DNA from: a virus
Lineage: Duplodnaviria; Heunggongvirae; Uroviricota; Caudoviricetes
IMG/VR virus record: IMGVR_UViG_2547132418_000023
DNA length: 16,707 bases
Strand: one strand, 5' to 3'
Shown here one piece after another: positions 1-16,707 of the stretch. The position numbers were made by a program, and so were the translations under genes. The first letter of the stretch is position 1, and each line of letters opens with the position of its first letter. The notes under the pieces are model-generated. The model saw nothing but the letters and a program-made list of their open reading frames with translations. It did no database searches and was not told the origin of the DNA.

Positions 1-765
1 ATGCGCGAAAGGGTATCGCAGCAGTTAAAAGAAATTGAACGGCGGTATGATGTGAAAGTATTGTACGCCTGTGAATCAGGGAGTCGCGGTTGGGGATTTG
101 CCTCGCCCGACAGCGACTACGATGTACGGTTTTTGTATGTTCACCCGCTGGAATGGTATCTGCGAGTAGAGTCACCGCGCGATGTTATCGAGCTGCCCAT
201 CGATGACGAGTTAGATGTTTCCGGTTGGGAGTGGCGTAAGGCGCTGGGATTATTGAAAGGCGCGAACCCGACGCTGATAGAATGGCTGGATTCTCCGGTG
301 GTCTATCAACAAGATGAAGAAACGATAACGGCGCTTAAGGCAATGGTCCCAACGTGGTTTTCTCCGCTGCGTGCGCGCTGGCATTACTATTCGATGGCGC
401 AGAAAAACTTCCGCGGATATTTGCAGGGCGATGAAGTTCGACTGAAAAAATACTTTTACGTGCTGCGCCCGCTGCTGGCCGTTCGTTGGGTTGAAGCGGG
501 AAAAGGTGTACCGCCAATGCGTTTTTCCGAATTGCTGGCGGGAAGTGAGTTGGATGCGGCATTACGCGCAGAAATAGATGAATTGCTGGAGCGTAAACAG
601 CGTGCGGGTGAAGCGGAATATGGACTGCGCCGTCCTTTGTTACATGCGTTTATTCGTGCGGAACTGGCGCGCGGGGAAATTCCTCCGCTGTTACCAGACA
701 GCCGGGAAGGGGACGTTAAAGAACTGGATAGTTTACTGTACCAGACGGTAATGCGCCGGGCGTGA
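1..765 (+). CDS. Nucleotidyltransferase-fold protein (Pol-beta superfamily), 254 aa; 5' end coincides with the window edge so the true start may lie upstream
   Basis: ATG at position 1, TGA at 763-765. N-terminal motif GSRGWGFASPDSDYDV fits the nucleotidyltransferase signature hG[GS]-x(9-13)-DhD. Convergent to the tail operon. Confidence 0.6.
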   Translation: MRERVSQQLKEIERRYDVKVLYACESGSRGWGFASPDSDYDVRFLYVHPLEWYLRVESPRDVIELPIDDELDVSGWEWRKALGLLKGANPTLIEWLDSPVVYQQDEETITALKAMVPTWFSPLRARWHYYSMAQKNFRGYLQGDEVRLKKYFYVLRPLLAVRWVEAGKGVPPMRFSELLAGSELDAALRAEIDELLERKQRAGEAEYGLRRPLLHAFIRAELARGEIPPLLPDSREGDVKELDSLLYQTVMRRA

Positions 766-781
766 AGCCCGGCGTTATTTT
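754..781 (+). terminator. Rho-independent terminator for the nucleotidyltransferase gene, sitting between convergent genes
   Basis: Perfect 8-bp stem CGCCGGGC (754-761) / GCCCGGCG (767-774), 5-nt loop GTGAA, followed by TTATTTT. The stop codon lies in the loop. No U-tract in the minus orientation. Confidence 0.55.
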
Positions 782-1235
782 ACGGCTGATATTGCCAGCT
801 ACTGACTAAAGCGTACAAGTGGTTTGGGGAATAGCGCCAACTCTCCTTTAATTGCAGAAATTCGGCACAAAATTCGCTGCAAAACAGGCGTTCACGCTGT
901 TCTTTATTACCGGTAATAATTCCAAGCGCGCCGCGCCAATCATATTTTTTGCCATCATGTTTATGGAAAAACGCTTCCACGTCCTGAAGGCTGGCCTGGA
1001 GCGGCAGCATATCCCACTTATCCGCTGGCAATGGCATTATCTTTCCGCGTACACCGCGATCGCGCAGTGATGCAGAGTAACAAAGGTAACTCTTTTCACC
1101 ATGCTTAACGGCTAATTCACAGTGGGAATAACTACCGCGCGTGATTTTACGGGTAAGCCAGTCAGCCAGTCGGGCAATACCACGGTGCTCTGTTCGGCCC
1201 TTATAACAAGCGAGCCAGACAGTGGTTTTACTCAT
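780..1235 (-). CDS. Putative permuted papain-like amidase (YiiX/YaeF-like, NlpC/P60 superfamily), 151 aa, translationally coupled to the upstream fibre chaperone gene
   Basis: ATG at 1233-1235 overlaps the upstream stop (ATGA). Motifs YSHCE, GKKYDW and FCSEFC resemble the His-before-Cys arrangement I recall for YiiX-family proteins. Recalled from memory, not searched. Confidence 0.4.
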   Translation of the reverse strand: MSKTTVWLACYKGRTEHRGIARLADWLTRKITRGSYSHCELAVKHGEKSYLCYSASLRDRGVRGKIMPLPADKWDMLPLQASLQDVEAFFHKHDGKKYDWRGALGIITGNKEQRERLFCSEFCAEFLQLKESWRYSPNHLYALVSSWQYQP

Positions 1236-1846
1236 GCTTGCCAGCCTGTTGAATAATCGTAGTCGAGCACCGCCTGAATATCGTCCAGAGCTTCCACCGC
1301 CGCGATATGGTGCTGGGCATTGGCGAACAGGCGCATATCGTGATCCATTGTTACCGATTCAAACTGGGCGGCGATCTCGTTGGTTAACTCGATCAGACCG
1401 TTATTTTTAGTTTTCCACATTAACCCTGGAGGGATTTTTTTCTCCGCTCCCATTTTTGTGAGTGAGAGCTGTTGGATACGGCTGTTTGTATCACTGTGGA
1501 AGTGATGGTTGTTGATGATGATGTAATCGGTTGTGACGTAATCCCGTTTGGATTTTATTCTTCTTATTATATCCGCTTTTATTTCTGAAATAAATTTAAG
1601 CATTGAATCTGTATCAACTATCCATTCTCCTTTTTTTAGTTTGTGAAATCTATCTGGTGGTGGCGTAGAGATAAAGGATAAATCTTCACAGTTAATCCAA
1701 ATTGGGATATTAGCTTTCGCATATGTCTGCCATTGCTGATCAGTTATTTCAACTAAATGTTCTACTTTAGGATAGTTGTAGTGTTCTGTATCGATCCAGT
1801 CCAGAACGATAAATGTTTCAGGATCAAAACAAGCATATTTTGTCAT
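1232..1846 (-). CDS. Putative tail fibre assembly/chaperone protein, 204 aa
   Basis: ATG at 1844-1846, immediately downstream of the fibre gene. Its 5' half shares the low GC (about 25-40%) of the fibre tip. It lacks the C-terminal EWP motif I recall for lambda/P2 Tfa, so the call is mainly positional. Confidence 0.5.
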   Translation of the reverse strand: MTKYACFDPETFIVLDWIDTEHYNYPKVEHLVEITDQQWQTYAKANIPIWINCEDLSFISTPPPDRFHKLKKGEWIVDTDSMLKFISEIKADIIRRIKSKRDYVTTDYIIINNHHFHSDTNSRIQQLSLTKMGAEKKIPPGLMWKTKNNGLIELTNEIAAQFESVTMDHDMRLFANAQHHIAAVEALDDIQAVLDYDYSTGWQA

Positions 1847-1852
1847 TTTTAA

Positions 1853-3847
1853 TTACCATGATATTTTTACGAAGCCAGAGGCACCTTTTGTTCCGCTAGT
1901 ATTGCCTAAATTTGTTAACTCATTATTTTTATATTGAAAAGGAGGTAAATAAGATCCCCCAGCTCCTCCAGAACCATAACCTGTTGCTGCTGTTGGCTTT
2001 GCCATTACTGCTTTTTTTCCACCATTACTTAGGTTTTCTGTAATAACAGTACCTGAAGCCCCTCCCTTTCCATATATAGAATTTTCACCATTCTTTCCAG
2101 GATAAAATTCTGCAGATGACGGTATTGCATTTGGTGGAGTACCTTTAGGATCGTCACTGAATTTTATATAAGGCTGCGTAGTGTTAGAGTGATAAATGTT
2201 ATATCCTCCATGGCCACCTTTTGCAGTTAGATTAGAAAACGAAGAGTCTCCACCATCAAAGCTTTTTTGTGTTGTCTCTGTTTTATCATACGAATACTTT
2301 ATTTGTGAAACAGGTGGATTGTTCCAAAAAGGACCTCCATTACCTCCAGCTCCGATCTTTACTGAAAAATGCTGGCCTGGTGCCACGTTTAAGTAATCAA
2401 CAATCAATTCTCCTGCATTACCTCCGCAGGCTTCATAATGTGATGATTGTGCTCCTCCGGCCCCCCCACCTCCGCCGCCCATAATTTCCACAAATAATAT
2501 TGTTACGCCCTCAGGAACTATAAATGTTCCATTTGTAGTATAAAAACTAGTGTGGGTATGATTAGCTGGAGCTGCAGTTTTTGCCTTATCCATTGCCGCC
2601 TTCACCGCGCTCGGTGTCGCCGCCTCCGTCGTACTGTTGCTATCCGTCGCGTTATTAAGCTTCACAATCCCTTTTTGCGACAGGGTGCCGTCTGGAACAC
2701 CCGTAATCTGTCCCCATGGGTGAGTATGGTTTCCCGCAGCCTTACTATTCGCCAGGTCATATGCCGCCTTCACCGCGCTCGGTGTCGCCGCCTCCGTCGT
2801 ACTGTTGCTATCCGTCGCGTTATTAAGCTTCACAATCCCTTTTTGCGACAGGGTGCCGTCTGGAACACCCGTAATCTGTCCCCATGGGTGAGTATGGTTT
2901 CCCGCAGCCTTACTATTCGCCAGGTCATATGCCGCCTTCACCGCGCTCGGTGTCGCCGCCTCCGTCGTACTGTTGCTATTGGTCGCGTTATTAAGTTTCA
3001 CAATCCCTTTTTGTGTCAGGGTACCGTCAGGAATACTCGTAATCTGCCCCCAGGGGTGCGTATGACTACCCGCAGCCTTACTATTCGCCAGGTCATACGC
3101 CGCCTTCACTGCGCTCGGTGTCGCCGCCTCCGTCGTACTGTTGCTGTCTGTCGCGTTATTAAGCTTCACAATCCCTTTTTGTGTCAGCGTACCATCTGGT
3201 ATATCAGTAATCTGACTCCAGGTATGACGATGATTTCGAGCCTCAATCATTGCCGCTTTCACCGCTTTTGGCGTAGCCGCTTTGGTTTCGTCATCACTGT
3301 CAGTGGCGTTACTCAACTGTGTAAAGCCTTTTTGCGTTAACGTAGCATCAGGATGATTAGTCGAACGCTCATGTTCATCCAGTTGTGAATCAACATAATC
3401 CCGTGTTGCCAGTACAATACTGGGGTCAACGGTGAGTGTTACCGCAGTCGTGTTGGAAACTTCCATAATCAGGCGAATGCAAACTTGCTTACCGCTGCCG
3501 CCGGGTAATAGTGGTTTATACGACTCCGGGAATTTACCGATAGCAATGAGTTCACCATCGGTATCAAAAACGCCGACTTCACGTACATACCAGCCGCCGA
3601 TATTTTCGGGCAGCACGAGTTCCGCAATTAACCAGTTAGGGTTATTGGGTGCAACTGTTAATGTATTTAAATCACCGCGCCATACTTCATGGCGTAATTT
3701 AGTTTGGCTGACGGTGGGTTCATAATATTGTCCTCCGCTGTCACCAACAGCCATTTTTTGTAGATGAAGCTGTTTTTTATCCGCCAGAGCATTGGCAATT
3801 TTTGCCATTCCCCTGTCGGTGAGTAGAGTATAAAACTCATTGTCCAT
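1853..3847 (-). CDS. Tail fibre protein, 664 aa: P2 gpH-like N-terminal domain, 56-aa repeat shaft, glycine-rich C-terminal tip
   Basis: ATG at 3845-3847 with GGAG 6 nt upstream. The N-terminus (EVWRGDLN, IAELVLPENIGGW, ESYKPLLPGGSG, ATRDYVDSQLDEHE, HPDATLTQKGFTQLSNATDS, ATPKAVKAA) matches my recollection of P2 gpH. Repeats of HTHPWGQIT..PDGTL.QKGIVKLNNATDSNSTTEAATPSAVKAAYDLANSKAAG follow. C-terminus carries GGGGGGAGG, GAGGNGG, GGHGG, GSGGAGGS motifs. Confidence 0.9.
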   Translation of the reverse strand: MDNEFYTLLTDRGMAKIANALADKKQLHLQKMAVGDSGGQYYEPTVSQTKLRHEVWRGDLNTLTVAPNNPNWLIAELVLPENIGGWYVREVGVFDTDGELIAIGKFPESYKPLLPGGSGKQVCIRLIMEVSNTTAVTLTVDPSIVLATRDYVDSQLDEHERSTNHPDATLTQKGFTQLSNATDSDDETKAATPKAVKAAMIEARNHRHTWSQITDIPDGTLTQKGIVKLNNATDSNSTTEAATPSAVKAAYDLANSKAAGSHTHPWGQITSIPDGTLTQKGIVKLNNATNSNSTTEAATPSAVKAAYDLANSKAAGNHTHPWGQITGVPDGTLSQKGIVKLNNATDSNSTTEAATPSAVKAAYDLANSKAAGNHTHPWGQITGVPDGTLSQKGIVKLNNATDSNSTTEAATPSAVKAAMDKAKTAAPANHTHTSFYTTNGTFIVPEGVTILFVEIMGGGGGGAGGAQSSHYEACGGNAGELIVDYLNVAPGQHFSVKIGAGGNGGPFWNNPPVSQIKYSYDKTETTQKSFDGGDSSFSNLTAKGGHGGYNIYHSNTTQPYIKFSDDPKGTPPNAIPSSAEFYPGKNGENSIYGKGGASGTVITENLSNGGKKAVMAKPTAATGYGSGGAGGSYLPPFQYKNNELTNLGNTSGTKGASGFVKISW
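2594..3265. repeat. Tandem 168-bp direct repeats (4 copies, units starting 2594, 2762, 2930, 3098; degenerate 5th about 3251-3340) inside the fibre gene
   Basis: TGCCGCCTTCACCGCGCTCGGTGTCGCCGCCTCCGTCGTACTGTTGC recurs at an exact 168-bp period. Copies 1 and 2 are nearly identical, later copies progressively diverged. In-frame, encoding 56-aa repeats. Confidence 0.85.
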
Positions 3848-3849
3848 AA

Positions 3850-4482
3850 TTACTCCGGGTAAATAGATGTAATTTCAAGGCTCCATTGCCCTGTTCCGTA
3901 ATAAATCGATGTGTTGTGCTGTACTTCCCGTATCTGGAAAGGTAAAACCGTCGTCAGTTCACCACCATAAAGTGCACAGCCAATAACAGGAATAGCACTT
4001 TGGTTAATGATCCAGACGATTAATGCTTCCAGTTTTGAACGTGTGTTTTTATATTCATGAATGAGTTCTACCAAATCATTGAAAAGGTTTTCATCCAGGC
4101 CTTTATCCACCAGCGCTATATCCACCTTAAAAAAATAAGCCCTTCCCCCATATTCAAACCATTCTGAAATAGTTCCTGGTAATGAGAGTATTTCCAGCAC
4201 CCGCCGCACCGCCCAAATTGTTCCTTTATATTTATGCAGTTCAATGGCTTGTTTAATTAACTCGCGTTTCTCCCGCTCATCGGTGGTAAATAACCAACCT
4301 TCCAGCCCCTGAACGTGAAATTGTTCTGCAAGGGCTGGTAATGCCGAAGCATCAACCTGGTCGATCAGATAAACCATCAACGCCGTCAGATCGAGTTGGG
4401 CAAAACGCTCGGCGGCGATATTTGCCAGAATCGAAAAACGCTCATCGCTGGCAAGCGGCGGCGGTGGCAGCAATTTATCCAT
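3850..4482 (-). CDS. Baseplate/tail protein, P2 gpI-like, about 210 aa
   Basis: The ORF-track start at 4497 is TTG; in-frame ATG at 4480-4482 (MDKLLPPPP...) overlaps the gpJ stop by 8 nt. Positioned between gpJ and the fibre as in P2 J-I-H. Confidence 0.7.
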   Translation of the reverse strand: MDKLLPPPPLASDERFSILANIAAERFAQLDLTALMVYLIDQVDASALPALAEQFHVQGLEGWLFTTDEREKRELIKQAIELHKYKGTIWAVRRVLEILSLPGTISEWFEYGGRAYFFKVDIALVDKGLDENLFNDLVELIHEYKNTRSKLEALIVWIINQSAIPVIGCALYGGELTTVLPFQIREVQHNTSIYYGTGQWSLEITSIYPE

Positions 4483-5590
4483 CGCTGACTCCGGCAATCG
4501 TGACGTCTATTGCGGTGCATTCCGCCCACTCATGCGCCTGCAAAATACGTTTTGTAGGCATATTCAGCGCAACGTCATAGACGCCATCGACCTGTAACAC
4601 TTTGATTATCTGGTTTGGCACAATGTCCTGCCCCAGATGTTTCTGCCGCTGTTGCGTCCAGAGGCTAATCGCTTTACGCGCTGCAGCCAGCGTTGTCTCC
4701 TGATCGGCGGTGGTAAACAGCGTTAGCTGCGCACGGATCTCATATGGCACTCGAAGAGCGCATTTCGCACTCACTTTGTCGGTCAGCGGACGTTTTTTCT
4801 CCTTGCTAACCTCCTGTTCAATTTGCGCGAGCAGTTCTATTCCCGGCAGTCCGTTCAGAGTTAGCGGGTAGATCTCCACGCAGCCTTCTGGCAATCCCTC
4901 GTCCGGCCCCAGTACTGCAACGTCAATAATCGACTGGCTAACAGAAAGCGTATGAAAGCGGTAGGCACCATAGCTGCCCGCATTACTAAAGCTTTCTGGT
5001 GCCAGTTGGATACGCTGGCGCAATGCGTCATCGCTCTCTTCACCGCAGCCGCCCGTTGACGCAGTCAGGTTGGTTACGTTGATGTCATAATGACCAATCC
5101 TGTCGACCAGTGCGCTAATTTGTGCAGGCTGCCAGCCGTTACCCTGTTCACCTGCTGCGAGGCTGGTGGCAGGAACGGCGATATGCAAACTCCTGGCCGG
5201 AAGCAGAACATCTTCATCGGTGGCGAACATCACGCTATCAGAGGCACTGGCCCGCGTTCCCTGGGGAATCAGGATATTGCTGGTATACGCGCTGACGACC
5301 GAAAACTGCAACGTCGTTTTTGCCGGCTGCGCAGGCAAACGGTGAACGCCCACCAACTCCCCTAAATAATCCAGCATTGGCGCGCGGGAATACGCGACCA
5401 GGTTCTGTTTCGCCGCTTCCTGAATGGCGATGCGTACAAGGTTTTCACGATAGGCAAACAGGTCGATGAGCAACCGCTCAGCCTGTGCCGGATAGAGTTT
5501 TTTACCGCTGGCATCTTCGTATTGCGCAATCATCTCACTGGTAATTTGCGCAGGATCGCGGTCAATAAAATTGGGTTCGGCTATCGCCAT
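4475..5590 (-). CDS. Baseplate J-like protein (P2 gpJ / T4 gp6 family), 371 aa
   Basis: ATG at 5588-5590 with GGAGGGG Shine-Dalgarno. Size and position after the gpW-like gene; start overlaps the gpW stop by 10 nt. Confidence 0.8.
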   Translation of the reverse strand: MAIAEPNFIDRDPAQITSEMIAQYEDASGKKLYPAQAERLLIDLFAYRENLVRIAIQEAAKQNLVAYSRAPMLDYLGELVGVHRLPAQPAKTTLQFSVVSAYTSNILIPQGTRASASDSVMFATDEDVLLPARSLHIAVPATSLAAGEQGNGWQPAQISALVDRIGHYDINVTNLTASTGGCGEESDDALRQRIQLAPESFSNAGSYGAYRFHTLSVSQSIIDVAVLGPDEGLPEGCVEIYPLTLNGLPGIELLAQIEQEVSKEKKRPLTDKVSAKCALRVPYEIRAQLTLFTTADQETTLAAARKAISLWTQQRQKHLGQDIVPNQIIKVLQVDGVYDVALNMPTKRILQAHEWAECTAIDVTIAGVSDG

Positions 5591-5940
5591 AACCCCTCCG
5601 TTGAGTTGATAACGCCGTCAGCGGCGCGCCATTGCACACGTAACGTCAGATGTTCGCCGTCGATTACTGGTGTCACCTTCAGCAACCGACAGCGCGGCTC
5701 CCACTGGCGGATGGCTTCCACCGACTCCCGTACCACATGCGGAATTGCCCGCTCGATGGGGTAATCGATGTAGTGCCACAAGTTGCTGCCAAACAGCGGT
5801 CTGTGGGGATCACTGCCGCGCGGTGTGCGCAGAATGATGTGTATTGCCTGGTGAATATCATCCAGTCCGCAGACGTATTCTTCAGGCCGCTGCAAGGCCG
5901 GTTGCCAGTGCAGCGTTGAGGGTCGTGTTTTTGTGTTCAT
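5581..5940 (-). CDS. Baseplate wedge protein, gpW / T4 gp25 family, 119 aa
   Basis: ATG at 5938-5940. Motifs DDIHQAIHIILRTPRGS and IRQWEPRCRLLKVT align with P2 gpW (ILRTPVGS, LKWEPRV) as I recall it. Confidence 0.85.
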   Translation of the reverse strand: MNTKTRPSTLHWQPALQRPEEYVCGLDDIHQAIHIILRTPRGSDPHRPLFGSNLWHYIDYPIERAIPHVVRESVEAIRQWEPRCRLLKVTPVIDGEHLTLRVQWRAADGVINSTEGLWR

Positions 5941-11872: not shown

Positions 11873-12397
11873 TTAGCCACCGATGTTATTGCGATAGGTA
11901 CTTAATTGATCCACGCCGTTAACCCGAAAAATATTCGCCATATAATCAAGTTCAAGCAGCGTTTCACCATCGACCACTTGTTTAATATAAGTACAACCAA
12001 AGGCGCTGCTGAATTCCGGGTTTTCATTCTGTTTAAATGTGCCCAAGGGATTCTTTTTAAACATCACGGTTAAATGTGTCACTAACGCTAATTGATTCGC
12101 TTTCCCCTGGGAGTTATAGCAATCAATACTGGAGCGGCACTGTAATGCTACTGCCTGCCACGGGTTTGCCGTTTTACGCATTACGTCCTGATAAAAGGAG
12201 TTCCATTTAATTTCCCCCTCCAGTTTATCGAAACCAGCCGGGAGTTCGATTTTACCGACCATACCCAGTGCTTTATGCTCTTGCATAATTAAACTGACAT
12301 CCGGCAATTTAATTTCGGTTGCACGACCTAAAAGATTATTACCATCGAGATAAATATTGGCGTTGGTAATACGGTTAATTTGAATTTTTCCAGCCAT
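11873..12397 (-). CDS. Tail tube protein (P2 FII-like), 174 aa
   Basis: ATG at 12395-12397 overlaps the sheath stop (TAATG). C-terminus CTYIKQVVDGETLLELDYMANIFRVNGVDQLSTYRNNIGG closely matches P2 FII as I recall it. Confidence 0.85.
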   Translation of the reverse strand: MAGKIQINRITNANIYLDGNNLLGRATEIKLPDVSLIMQEHKALGMVGKIELPAGFDKLEGEIKWNSFYQDVMRKTANPWQAVALQCRSSIDCYNSQGKANQLALVTHLTVMFKKNPLGTFKQNENPEFSSAFGCTYIKQVVDGETLLELDYMANIFRVNGVDQLSTYRNNIGG

Positions 12398-13821: not shown

Positions 13822-14008
13822 GTACAATTTCCTCTACGTTATTTTGTTCTTCCTGAGTGATGACAGGAGTCAGATGATTGCGGGCAATCATGGTCATGAC
13901 CCACTCGTTGTCTTCTGGCAGATCAATTTCACTGTTCGGCCACAATAAGATTTCTTGTCCATCGGCAAGGGTGACGCCGCTTGCCGGGCCGTTGTAGATG
14001 TATTTCAT
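13811..14008 (-). CDS. Small conserved tail-module protein (Mu gp38-like), 65 aa
   Basis: ATG at 14006-14008 overlaps the upstream stop (ATGA). Position directly before the sheath, as in Mu-like phages. Family assignment from memory. Confidence 0.4.
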   Translation of the reverse strand: MKYIYNGPASGVTLADGQEILLWPNSEIDLPEDNEWVMTMIARNHLTPVITQEEQNNVEEIVHGS

Positions 14009-14460
14009 TCAGTTTCCTCGTAGTTAACTTCCGTAAGCAGGGGAAGATCCGTGCTTTCCTGTTCAGCGATAAACAGCGAGCTGGTCGCCATTTCCAGGAT
14101 GTAGCGGCAGAAACCGCCGCTCTCACCCGTATTAATTTCTTTTTCAAGCCAAAGCAGACGATCGCAATCAGGAAGCTGAAGGCCGCCCAATGCGCTGCGT
14201 ATGCAATCAAGTGCGTTTAACGCGTCACAATTTTTGTCAACAATAACGGTGGCGGTTAAGCGGAGTATTTGCTGTTGCACGATGGCATCACTGCTTTCGG
14301 GTGTGGTAAAGACAGAACCGCTATAATTAATAATCACTGCAACTTGTTGTGTCTGTGGAATATATTTCTGGGCATCCGTAGATGAAATAAATATATCCAT
14401 TTCAGGATGCCGATCACGTAATTTGACCATGACATAATTCATTGCAGATAAAATTTTCAT
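14005..14460 (-). CDS. Putative tail completion/terminator protein (Mu gp37-like), 151 aa
   Basis: ATG at 14458-14460. First gene of the tail operon after the terminator. VAVIINYSGSVF-type motif. Family assignment from memory. Confidence 0.45.
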   Translation of the reverse strand: MKILSAMNYVMVKLRDRHPEMDIFISSTDAQKYIPQTQQVAVIINYSGSVFTTPESSDAIVQQQILRLTATVIVDKNCDALNALDCIRSALGGLQLPDCDRLLWLEKEINTGESGGFCRYILEMATSSLFIAEQESTDLPLLTEVNYEETE

Positions 14461-14564
14461 ATGAGGTGTACCTTAATTACCGCTCACTTCGTTATCGTTG
14501 AGATGTATTATGAAGCAGTGAAGGTGAAGAATCTTTTAATGTGATTTAGAGAAAAAATTGAATG

Positions 14565-14601
14565 GCTATAAAAAATCCCCACACTTACGTAAAGGTGGGG
14601 A
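14565..14601 (-). terminator. Intrinsic terminator separating the lysis cassette from the tail operon
   Basis: 7-bp stem TCCCCAC (14576-14582) / GTGGGGA (14595-14601) with a partly self-complementary loop. In mRNA sense followed by UUUUUUAUAGCC, just after the 14607 stop. Confidence 0.5.
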
Positions 14602-14606
14602 TGTAT

Positions 14607-14921
14607 TTAATAACTGCCACGTTGTAACAGCTCGATTTTGCTATATAAGGCATCCAGCTTTGCTTCTAATACTGCTTGCCCACGAAGATAATCTTCTCTG
14701 CGGACATAATGCAGCGGAAGCTCGGCACGAAATTCAAGAAACTCTCTTTCCAGTTTCGACCAACTTGTTTCTGATTCCCTGCGGGCATTTTCCAGAGACT
14801 CAAAACGCTCATTAAGTCGTTTTTCAATTTGCGCTAACAGCAGTTTTCCGGCAGCAAACATTAATCCAACGAAGGAAAGCATAAGGGAGATCACTTCCCA
14901 AAAATCGATACTGAGTTTCAT
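14607..14921 (-). CDS. Membrane-anchored coiled-coil protein, possible lysis accessory (i-spanin-like), 104 aa
   Basis: ATG at 14919-14921 with GAGGGG Shine-Dalgarno. N-terminal hydrophobic helix (VISLMLSFVGLMFAAGKLLLA) then charged heptad-like sequence. Last gene of the lysis cassette. Confidence 0.5.
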   Translation of the reverse strand: MKLSIDFWEVISLMLSFVGLMFAAGKLLLAQIEKRLNERFESLENARRESETSWSKLEREFLEFRAELPLHYVRREDYLRGQAVLEAKLDALYSKIELLQRGSY

Positions 14922-14933
14922 CGGCCCCTCTGA

Positions 14934-15539
14934 TTAGTGAAGACAGCTTGCCTGTCCCCAGAGTAAATAGCGGGCAGCGTGTTGATAGAGAATCATCTTT
15001 GGATAGCGACGATTTTCTCGCCAGTTCGCGGCGCTGCGCCCGGCGTTGACTTGCTCGACATGACCAAACCAGCGAGTGGCATCTAACCCTTTGGATGCAG
15101 CCAGTTTTTTATCCCGGTTAACCCACCCCTGACCGCCGTTATAGGCGCTTAGGGTAAACGCCATACGCTGACAGTCATTTTGCGCAGAGATGTTTTTCCA
15201 CAAATGCTGGTCATATTGCACCAGCGCGCGAATCGCCCAGGTTGGGTTATACGGTTTGTTTTCACGCAATTGTGGATACAACTGGCTTATCCATGTCGCA
15301 GTAGCAGGCATAAATTGCGCCATACCTTGTGCGCCAACGGGGGAACGTACCATTGGCTGCCAGGCGGACTCCTGGTGTAATTGCCCGGCAAAGTCGGCCA
15401 CTGGGGCATTCAGCCCCCAGACTTCTCGAGCTGTACGAATTAGTTCGTTTCGCCATGCCAGAGAGGCTCGCGGCGGTTCAGAGGCGTTAAGCGGGAAAAG
15501 AACGAAAATAATCATAGACGCGATATATTTCAGCCACAT
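14934..15539 (-). CDS. Endolysin candidate: lytic transglycosylase (SLT-like) with N-terminal signal/SAR sequence, about 201 aa
   Basis: The ORF-track start at 15617 is TTG; ATG at 15537-15539 (MWLKYIASMIIFVLFPLNAS...) lies 2 nt after the holin-like stop with AGGG upstream. HQESAWQP has the catalytic Glu-Ser context; GAQGMAQFMP and AYNGG are SLT-like. Confidence 0.7.
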   Translation of the reverse strand: MWLKYIASMIIFVLFPLNASEPPRASLAWRNELIRTAREVWGLNAPVADFAGQLHQESAWQPMVRSPVGAQGMAQFMPATATWISQLYPQLRENKPYNPTWAIRALVQYDQHLWKNISAQNDCQRMAFTLSAYNGGQGWVNRDKKLAASKGLDATRWFGHVEQVNAGRSAANWRENRRYPKMILYQHAARYLLWGQASCLH

Positions 15540-15829: not shown

Positions 15830-16125
15830 ACGATATCTCCTGATAAGTGAGCGTTTAGTGTCGTCAGAACCCGCCAGTGAAGAATGAAAAAAGCTTTAAT
15901 AAATAAGTTTAAAAAATAGATTCTCTATAAATGAACATGCCCGCTAATAAATCGACTCAGCAATTAAAGAGCAAACGGTGACCTGGCGAATAAGCGCGTC
16001 ATTATGCAGGGAAAAGATGATGGTGGATCGTAGGAATAGTCGATAGTTATTTGATTTTTAAAGTTTGTTTAAGAAAGTCAGCGACTGTGAGGGAAACGAT
16101 CTTTTTACACTACAGGTAAAAATAA

Positions 16126-16145
16126 TACTGTATGTGCATACAGTA
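16126..16145. promoter_or_regulatory. LexA (SOS) box
   Basis: TACTGTATGTGCATACAGTA is a 20-bp palindrome with CTGT-N8-ACAG, one mismatch from the E. coli recA operator as I recall it (TACTGTATGAGCATACAGTA). It lies in the divergent control region. Confidence 0.7.
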
Positions 16146-16166
16146 TCGTGTAAAATGATACTCCTG

Positions 16167-16197
16167 TTGACAAGAAACATAACACAAACAATATATT
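16167..16197 (+). promoter_or_regulatory. Candidate sigma70 promoter for the Mor/C-like gene
   Basis: Perfect -35 TTGACA (16167-16172) and TATATT (16192-16197), but with a long 19-bp spacer. About 170 nt upstream of the ATG. Confidence 0.35.
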
Positions 16198-16365
16198 TAT
16201 TTAGTGAATTTATGCGTACATTAATATTAAGAATTTATATTTCTGGTGATTGTTTATTTGTTTGTTGAATGTATTGAGTAGCAGTAATGACAACTGCTTA
16301 GCGTATATCCGTGGTTTTACACGCATCGGGTCTTATTCAGGATGCAAGATATATGGAGATGAAAA

Positions 16366-16707
16366 ATGATACGAAAATCAAAAGAGATGGCCCGGACACC
16401 GGAGATCATTAACGACCTGGCTTTTCATGCATCGCAAGTTCTGATTGAAAGCATCAATCTCGACAGTTCATCGGCAGAAAATGTGGGTTTTGCCATTGCC
16501 GACCGAATGATGCGTAACTGGGGCGGACAAAGCATTTATTTCCCTAAGGGGATCTCCGGACGAGCATCGGAGCGTGACTACCAAATCTATAGCGAGTGCG
16601 ATGGGCGCAACTACGCCGAATTAGCGAAGAAATATAATCTGACGCTGCAATGGATTTATAAGATAGTCAAACGTGTACATACGGAGAAGCAGCAGAGTCG
16701 TATGTAG
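16366..16707 (+). CDS. Mor/C-family transcriptional activator (Mu middle/late activator-like), 113 aa
   Basis: ATG at 16366 with GGAG upstream, TAG at 16705-16707. GGQSIYFPKG...DYQIYSECDGRNYAELAKKYNLTLQWIYKIVKR parallels Mu Mor (GGGQVYIPRG...DLRIWNDFNGRNVSELTTRYGVTFNTVYKAIRR). Confidence 0.8.
   Translation: MIRKSKEMARTPEIINDLAFHASQVLIESINLDSSSAENVGFAIADRMMRNWGGQSIYFPKGISGRASERDYQIYSECDGRNYAELAKKYNLTLQWIYKIVKRVHTEKQQSRM

Follow-up and report, generated by a model that had tools for sequence, protein, structure and literature searches.

The sequence analysed here, referred to below as the window, is the whole 16,707-nt stretch of IMG/VR virus record IMGVR_UViG_2547132418_000023, and the subject of this report is its tail fibre gene together with the gene directly downstream. 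The fibre gene (1853-3847, minus strand) encodes a protein of 664 amino acids (aa). After a 6-bp spacer follows a gene (1232-1846, minus strand) encoding a putative fibre chaperone of the DUF4376 type (204 aa). A stretch of low GC content runs across the distal part of the first gene and the proximal part of the second. It very probably marks an exchangeable target-specificity cassette of a contractile-tail gene cluster (1557-2593, minus strand), consisting of the fibre tip, the spacer and the N-terminal domain of the chaperone. The limits of the cassette were set by change points in the GC content of third codon positions (GC3) at 1553/2582 and by the limits of blastn homology to other alleles.

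Three parts were recognised in the fibre. The first 150 residues (3398-3847, minus strand) formed a P2 gpH-like baseplate-attachment domain (Pfam PF12571, E 7.3e-61, 205 bits against a cut-off of 23), followed by a shaft (2594-3352, minus strand) in which PF03406 repeats matched in five stretches (E 5.6e-89). The remainder (1853-2593, minus strand; residues 419-664 plus the stop codon) was the receptor-binding tip, a TNF-like and glycine-rich domain matching PF21722 (Gly_rich_2) over residues 437-663 with 41.2 bits against a cut-off of 24.3. The first-pass annotation, made from the letters alone, had proposed a tip grafted onto a P2 gpH-like N-terminus and repeat shaft, and the profile matches agree with it. 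Within the shaft, Tandem Repeats Finder reported an array at 2594-3214 with a period of 168 bp, 3.7 copies and 93% matches, beginning at 2594, and a separate repeat search concurred. In a predicted monomer model the tip resembled the solved Pam3 gp24-like TNF-like/glycine-rich member, and in an alignment of tips the glycine frames were conserved with variable loops between them. As modelled, the tip is a Pam3-gp24-like TNF-like/glycine-rich receptor-binding domain, for which trimerisation and receptor binding by the distal loops are predicted. The copy number of the 168-bp (56-aa) repeat varied: S10 and most genomes with an identical cassette had a fibre of 608 aa, one repeat fewer than in the window, and fibre lengths were 581-589 aa in other alleles and 389-608 aa in Salmonella copies. 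Plus-strand open reading frames (ORFs) at 2196-2396, 2269-2484 and 2552-3340 were rejected as genes, being antisense to the fibre gene; the 262-aa translation of the last was itself repetitive, which marks it as a by-product of the repeat array.

The chaperone gene was likewise found to be divided. Its conserved C-terminal domain (1232-1556, minus strand) carried the match to PF14301 (DUF4376; residues 88-196, E 4.6e-13, 50 bits against a cut-off of 25), had a GC3 of 0.59, and was 92-98.5% identical in nucleotides to all other E. coli alleles up to 1556-1559. The variable N-terminal domain (1557-1846, minus strand; residues 1 to about 97) was delimited by its GC3, by identity among homologues and by co-variation with the tip. 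Among about 120 homologues, identity in the C-domain was 65-94% and tracked the host genus, whereas identity in the N-domain was 15-58% and did not. A structure model of the protein showed a beta-rich domain at residues 3-77, and by analogy with characterised systems the N-domain would be the part that binds the tip. Caudo_TAP (PF02413) gave no match in this protein at E <= 0.01, and a comparison with PDB chains, TfaMu (5YVQ) included, returned no sequence or fold match. A classical Caudo_TAP Tfa was therefore rejected, and of the annotation's term "chaperone" what can be kept is a presumed fibre chaperone of the DUF4376 type. NCBIfam offered no useful name for the fibre, for the chaperone or for the following gene, orf151.

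The fall in GC across the fibre C-terminus and the 5' half of the chaperone gene, which the first-pass annotation had placed at 1390-2560, was confirmed by windowed GC, by a likelihood scan of GC3 and by codon usage. In windows of 100-200 bp, GC went from 0.50-0.56 at 1100-1400 to 0.25-0.43 at 1500-2400 and back to 0.50-0.62 past about 2550; the interval 1390-2560 had a GC of 0.383 against 0.495 elsewhere in the window, and the lowest-GC 1031-bp window in all 16.7 kb started at 1379. A two-boundary maximum-likelihood segment scan was run on total GC and on the third codon positions of the minus-strand genes. The best segment was 1401-2330 by total GC and 1553-2582 by GC3, the latter with a GC3 of 0.22 within and 0.49 outside. 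Its log-likelihood ratio was 39.4, whereas 200 permutations gave 5.3 on average and never more than 11.6, so that the trough is real and far beyond chance. It took in the last 246 codons of the 664-aa fibre gene and the first 97-100 or so codons of the 204-aa downstream gene. By part, GC3 stood at 0.21 for codons 466-664 of the fibre gene and at 0.24 for the first 96 codons of the downstream gene. The remainder of the latter gene had a GC3 of 0.52-0.65, the fibre repeats had 0.53 and gpJ had 0.58.

The two scans placed the boundaries differently because of amino-acid composition. On the left, 1401-1553 had a normal GC3 (0.52) with low GC at first and second codon positions (GC1 and GC2), as this part encodes an I/N/K/T-rich conserved domain; on the right, glycine codons lifted total GC over 2330-2582 while GC3 was already low. 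The interval 1390-2560 is essentially what the total-GC trough and the GC3 trough cover together. The left edge named in the annotation (1390) thus agrees with the start of the total-GC trough at about 1400, but the recombination junction described below lies at about 1540-1559, some 165 bp further right, and 1400-1556 is conserved backbone. It could be asked whether the whole trough merely reflects amino-acid composition or chance fluctuation, since 1400-1556 is low only through GC1 and GC2 and other parts of the 16.7 kb go down to a GC of 0.36-0.44. This explanation was rejected as very improbable: the GC3 of the cassette was 0.20 against 0.46 predicted from backbone codon usage and the cassette's own amino-acid composition, the likelihood ratio far exceeded the permuted maximum, and the boundaries coincided with recombination junctions. 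A/T-ending codons were over-represented for nearly all amino acids, and the shift is mainly synonymous. Further AT-rich stretches of the window were the tube gene (11873-12397; GC 0.41, GC3 0.42), the lysis-gene region (14001-15000; GC 0.42-0.44) and the intergenic region upstream of the Mor gene (16001-16500; GC 0.36). No Rfam match to a structured RNA was found across the whole window, and in promoter and terminator scans of 600-4600 nothing inside the cassette exceeded the shuffled expectation.

Among 5,426 complete genomes, 196 had DNA matching the conserved part of the chaperone gene, and only 40 of these carried the cassette of the window, all 100% identical over 1400-2450. Junctions were mapped by blastn of the window against five other E. 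coli loci. In these the backbone was 92-98.5% identical in nucleotides on the left and about 95.5% on the right, with tips and N-domains that were unrelated or about 35-40% identical. The left-hand homology ended at 1528-1559, at the start of the DUF4376 domain, which is also the start of the conserved motif ...RDxxTTDYIIINNHHFHSD; the sharpest case was ws5-3, whose left flank was 98.5% identical through 1556 and unrelated after it. The right junction, 2594/2595, was the distal end of the 168-bp tandem array, and in A10 and E7-1N7 (types C1/C2, with different Gly-rich tips) the homology picked up again at about 2594. In the shaft, the DNA aligned almost without differences to types C1 and C2, and this agreement was lost from about 2595 towards the tip. 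The GC3 change points 1553/2582 thus coincided with the limits of DNA homology to other alleles. The same backbone with other tips and N-domains between the same junctions is what the proposal of a mosaic module at this place had implied; neither uniform GC nor a lack of mosaicism among relatives was found.

At least four allele classes occupied the slot in E. coli, and others were seen in Salmonella, E. albertii and Scandinavium. The window type, C1 and C2 had three divergent Gly-rich tips. The type-B allele (IAI39, 2016C-3878 and ws5-3) had a Collar-domain fibre with HxH repeats, and Caudo_TAP matched the N-domain of its chaperone at residues 71-134 (E 3.3e-7, 30.9 bits against a cut-off of 22.1). 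For type B, homology picked up again only at 3979, inside the gene for the gpI-like baseplate protein (3850-4497, minus strand; PF09684), which suggests that the gpI-fibre interface co-varies. The larger swap unit in type B comprised the C-terminal 43 or so codons of gpI (3850-3978), replaced together with the fibre N-terminus and shaft; the type-B N-terminus and shaft were about 71% identical in nucleotides to the window, and the C-terminal part of gpI was AT-rich (GC3 0.37). Signs of decay were seen as an IS1A inserted within the stretch matching 1400-2450 in MS14386 (NZ_LR130552.1), and as a type-B fibre broken into pseudogene fragments in ws5-3.

Variation at a fibre tip may also be programmed, by an invertible segment of the Mu G/P1 C type or by a diversity-generating retroelement acting on the tip, both mechanisms being known for Mu/P2-like fibre tips. 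The conserved glycine frames with variable loops would suit such an explanation. Yet zero inverted repeats of >=16 nt and no template/variable-repeat pair were found in 1-4600, where the sole notable direct repeat was the shaft array; no invertase, recombinase or reverse transcriptase was present in the window or the full element, and a second, alternative fibre/chaperone pair, as required by an invertible segment, was absent. Both mechanisms were accordingly rejected for this locus and are given next to no credence, less than any other explanation considered here.

Co-variation was analysed with eight alleles from E. coli, E. albertii, Salmonella and Scandinavium. Tip identity was correlated with N-domain identity (rho 0.93), and its correlation with C-domain identity was -0.23. 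Tip identity was also uncorrelated with gpJ identity, whereas the C-domain correlated with gpJ and with orf151 (r 0.95). At the sequence level, tip and chaperone N-domain therefore co-vary and appear uncoupled from the backbone. A likely reason is that the N-domain must recognise the tip class that it folds.

The age of the alleles was estimated from synonymous divergence (dS). Between the window and E. albertii, which has the same allele class, dS was 0.22-0.33 in the cassette and 0.28-0.63 in the backbone; the corresponding values for the Salmonella copy L007, again of the same class, were 1.2-2.0 and 1.6-2.4. Against E. coli A10, of a different class, dS was 1.5-3.0 in the cassette and 0.11-0.28 in the backbone. 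By this measure, the E. coli backbones are far younger than the allele classes they carry, and the equality of cassette and backbone dS within a class indicates that the window's class has been in the element family for as long as the genera have been diverged. Within the Gly-rich classes, the ratio of nonsynonymous to synonymous divergence was 0.14-0.36 in the tip and 0.21-0.44 in the N-domain. The backbone had 0.00-0.15, so the cassette evolves faster than the backbone yet is constrained.

Exchange between genera could be followed in a sister allele. The tip of E. coli E7-1N7 (L002 2846-3440) was 93% identical in nucleotides to a Salmonella enterica tip (L017 5650-6257), with a dS of 0.20, while the backbone dS between the two was 1.1-3.5 and the flanking genes were 72-82% identical. 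A recent direct Escherichia-Salmonella transfer is thus documented by these divergences, and because the high identity stops at the fibre stop codon, the tip alone moved. A quantitative PCR assay for STM4200, specific to S. Typhimurium, has been published (PMC6201931). Its primers and probe matched the E7-1N7 tip with 0-1 mismatches, so the assay could cross-react with such E. coli strains.

These data bear on the annotation's term "horizontally acquired", which in its plainest form would mean a recent import from a low-GC phage or bacterial donor, with the low GC as an unameliorated scar. Such an origin would agree with the GC3 of 0.20-0.24 against 0.5-0.65 in the flanks, with the window and E. 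albertii alleles being the most AT-rich of the eight, and with the inter-genus transfer documented for the sister tip. However, cassette dS equalled backbone dS against both E. albertii and Salmonella, and at dS >1 a scar should have ameliorated. Low GC3 was moreover common to all eight alleles (tip 0.22-0.37, N-domain 0.20-0.37, C-domain 0.53-0.63), and the named homologues of tip and chaperone were all from Enterobacteriaceae. Searches for a donor gave little: tblastn of tip and N-domain against 50,697 phage records returned one weak Salmonella fragment only, large protein searches returned Enterobacteriaceae names only, and IMG/VR held only 5-17-kb copies of the same element. In 185,579 species genomes there was one locus, labelled as a Bacillota metagenome-assembled genome (JAEZCC010000043.1, L006, 'MAG: Bacillota bacterium'). 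This sole non-enteric locus was a 6.6-kb contig with a tip 100% identical to that of the window over the 245-aa query, and in all likelihood it comes from E. coli and was binned wrongly. None of these searches turned up a low-GC donor. Of the marks of a recently transferred island, only the atypical synonymous composition was seen, with neither an age below that of the flanks nor an identifiable donor. Recent import was thus judged unlikely, and what remains of the annotation's term is allelic replacement from an old, shared cassette pool, of which low GC is not a mark of recent arrival.

A further point came from a related chaperone N-domain in a different P2-like prophage (L014), which had a GC3 of 0.53. 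Together with the low GC3 of all eight alleles, this indicates that the trough is a stable property of the slot, and that the bias belongs to the locus and not to the protein. It is conceivable, although we would not favour it, that low GC3 has been kept in place, the alleles forming an ancient balanced polymorphism without internal recombination and with exchange only at the conserved edges; escape from GC-biased gene conversion, or selection (xenogeneic-silencer binding, slow translation for folding), would then have led to an AT-rich equilibrium. The persistence of low GC3 in 8/8 alleles from four genera despite saturated dS between alleles fits this, as do the coincidence of the GC3 steps with the DNA-homology limits and the locus-specific bias indicated by L014. 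On the other hand, the flanking genes share the presumed operon, which makes a difference in expression-linked codon selection unlikely, and the GC3 of the tube gene (0.42) and of the gpI C-terminus (0.37) shows that AT-richness is not exclusive to the swapped parts.

Under the preferred reading, that of an exchangeable specificity cassette, two mutually fitting parts would be encoded together: the distal fibre tip and the N-domain of the DUF4376 chaperone. By analogy with Pam3 gp25, TfaMu and V22 gp27, the N-domain would clamp the tip while the conserved C-domain drives trimerisation. The shaft repeats with the upstream genes on one side, and the DUF4376 C-domain with the downstream genes on the other, would serve as homology arms allowing replacement of whole alleles by homologous recombination; sometimes the tip alone would be replaced, through a third crossover at the boundary between fibre stop and chaperone start. 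Old alleles would be common to Escherichia, Salmonella and relatives, following a history of their own apart from the backbone, and it is this history, not a recent import, that the AT-rich synonymous composition would mark.

Several points weigh against this reading. The co-variation was drawn from eight alleles only, whose 28 pairs are non-independent, and the exchange between E7-1N7 and Salmonella, which by its sequence limits concerned the tip only, shows that tip and N-domain are not indivisible. The parity of dS within a class means that the lineage which gained the cassette, and the date, cannot be told. The reading also leaves the persistently low GC3 without a cause, for which either shielding from GC-biased conversion tied to recombination or an AT-rich pool of shared cassettes may be considered.

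The locus belongs to an E. coli chromosomal element adjoining yjbD/rluF. In the divergent strains S10 and IAI39, the element spanned yjbD to lysC with the same gene content (S10 copy, L015 18142-35840). Its tail genes were those for sheath, tube, TAC, TMP, U, X, D, V, W, J, I, fibre and chaperone, among them gpJ (4475-5590, minus strand) and gpW (5581-5940, minus strand) of the window. The other genes encoded a slipin and RlaP as cargo, orf151, a Gp37-family protein, a membrane protein, an SLT transglycosylase, a holin and a Mor-family activator. No capsid, packaging (terminase), replication or integration genes were present in the element of S10 and IAI39. A full contractile-tail set with a lysis cassette and a regulator, and with no head, replication or integration genes, is the gene complement of an R-type tailocin, and the element looks like a tailocin-like cluster or a tail-only prophage remnant as far as gene content can tell. 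Copies in IMG/VR were contigs of 5-17.4 kb, six of them 16-17.4 kb. In Salmonella a homologous element was found at the same site, in some strains truncated by a gtr operon. A literature search found no paper describing the element or its particles; the published 'ST131 tailocin' (PMC9205054) is not the same element but a P2-like prophage of 23 kb that has capsid genes.

Since head genes are lacking, the cassette may set the killing spectrum of a tailocin-like particle or defective prophage, not a host range. The annotation's "host-range module" thus holds as a specificity cassette, with a target spectrum possibly in the place of host range. In a more far-reaching proposal, which we put forward tentatively and rate somewhat lower than in-place maintenance of low GC3, the 16.7-kb window would be an R-type tailocin that has been domesticated and is fixed in Escherichia between yjbD and lysC, Salmonella having a homologous site. 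Its killing spectrum would have been diversified by ancient trans-species cassette replacement at two or three conserved junctions, and the AT-rich third positions would be an equilibrium resulting from shielding against allelic recombination, and with it against GC-biased conversion, instead of a sign of foreign descent. If true, the locus would show at the level of sequence how such precise swaps of tailocin specificity come about, and it would offer a natural test of GC-biased gene conversion in bacteria.

Downstream of the DUF4376 gene, in all loci examined, lay the conserved backbone gene orf151 (780-1235, minus strand; 151 aa), which overlaps the chaperone stop codon by 4 bp. It had no Pfam match and matched PHROG 1128, whose label 'enoyl-CoA hydratase-like' is doubtful; its Cys/His motifs SHCE and FCSEFC were conserved, and a copy of 159 aa also followed the DUF4376 gene in the unrelated P2-like prophage L014. 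Its product may be one more accessory protein of the fibre. The slipin-family and RlaP genes (window 1-775, plus strand; L015 18142-20066) formed convergent cargo at the element's fibre end. The RlaP nucleotidyltransferase gene occupied 1-765 (plus strand), and a strong bidirectional hairpin at 753-775 closed off the cargo. In E. albertii this position held a GT4 glycosyltransferase gene, and in Salmonella it held acetyltransferase/SBF transporter genes, which indicates a variable cargo slot.

Phages and tailocins are known to gain new specificity when a fibre tip is exchanged along with the half of its chaperone that binds it, and to this the locus contributes nothing new in principle. What is new here is a well-resolved example, with at least four allele classes in one slot and junctions placed to about 20 bp inside both genes, for a tip fold so far solved only in a cyanophage and a mycobacteriophage. 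For retargeting of fibres, the junctions already provide splice points, namely where the last 168-bp repeat ends, where the DUF4376 C-domain begins, and at the stop codon of the fibre gene. The cassette alleles could be used as typing markers, as STM4200 already is for S. Typhimurium. The persistently low GC3 also warns against taking a compositional trough in a fibre gene for a recent import.

Among known systems, cyanophage Pam3 offers a structural parallel. In the structure of its gp24-gp25 complex (PDB 7YPX), a variable N-domain binds the TNF-like/Gly-rich domains and a conserved C-domain trimerises (PMC9608196). The chaperone of the window had no detectable sequence or fold match to gp25, however, and its fibre has a long P2 gpH-type N-terminus and a PF03406 shaft in an enterobacterial host, whereas Pam3 has a short helical stalk. 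DUF4376 proteins have been experimentally shown to be required as fibre chaperones in Alteromonas V22/A5 and Campylobacter CJIE1 (PMC7289586, PMC10579305, PMC7882524), the requirement for folding or activity of the cognate fibre having been demonstrated for V22 gp27 and the CJIE1 partner (PMC7289586, PMC7882524). As in V22 gp27, A5 gp9 and the partner of the CJIE1 H-fibre, the protein of the window has a DUF4376 C-domain and its gene follows the fibre gene, and the fibre-chaperone module is common to otherwise unrelated elements. Unlike in those systems, where function was tested, the chaperone role is here proposed by analogy, and the N-domains and tips are unrelated in sequence.

For TfaMu, a structure shows the N-domain recognising the fibre tip (North 2019, as cited in PMC9608196 and PMC7882524). 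In Mu TfaMu, P2 gpG and lambda Tfa, according to the same sources, the C-terminus of the fibre is bound by a non-conserved N-domain while fibre assembly falls to a conserved C-domain, a division of labour which the window protein would share. The type-B allele at the same locus comes closer still to Caudo_TAP Tfa proteins through its Caudo_TAP-matching N-domain, but the window protein differs from TfaMu, P2 gpG and lambda Tfa in having no Caudo_TAP or PDB match, and in the absence of an invertible segment. In Pseudomonas tailocins, localized recombination of the receptor-binding protein and its chaperone has been described (Baltrus 2019; Backman 2024; both as reported in PMC12090994). The likeness lies in a headless contractile tail at a fixed chromosomal site, in which, according to that report, receptor-binding protein and chaperone are far more variable than the backbone and give trees conflicting with it. 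The element described here differs in its Mu/P2-like enterobacterial tail lineage, in its tip fold and in that its killing activity is putative; its junctions, resolved within about 20 bp, lie inside the fibre and chaperone genes, not around them as in the Pseudomonas clusters so reported. Finally, the architecture of the tip recalls the gp38 adhesins of T-even phages (S16 gp38, as cited in PMC9608196), in which conserved glycine frames likewise carry the variable distal loops that determine the receptor.

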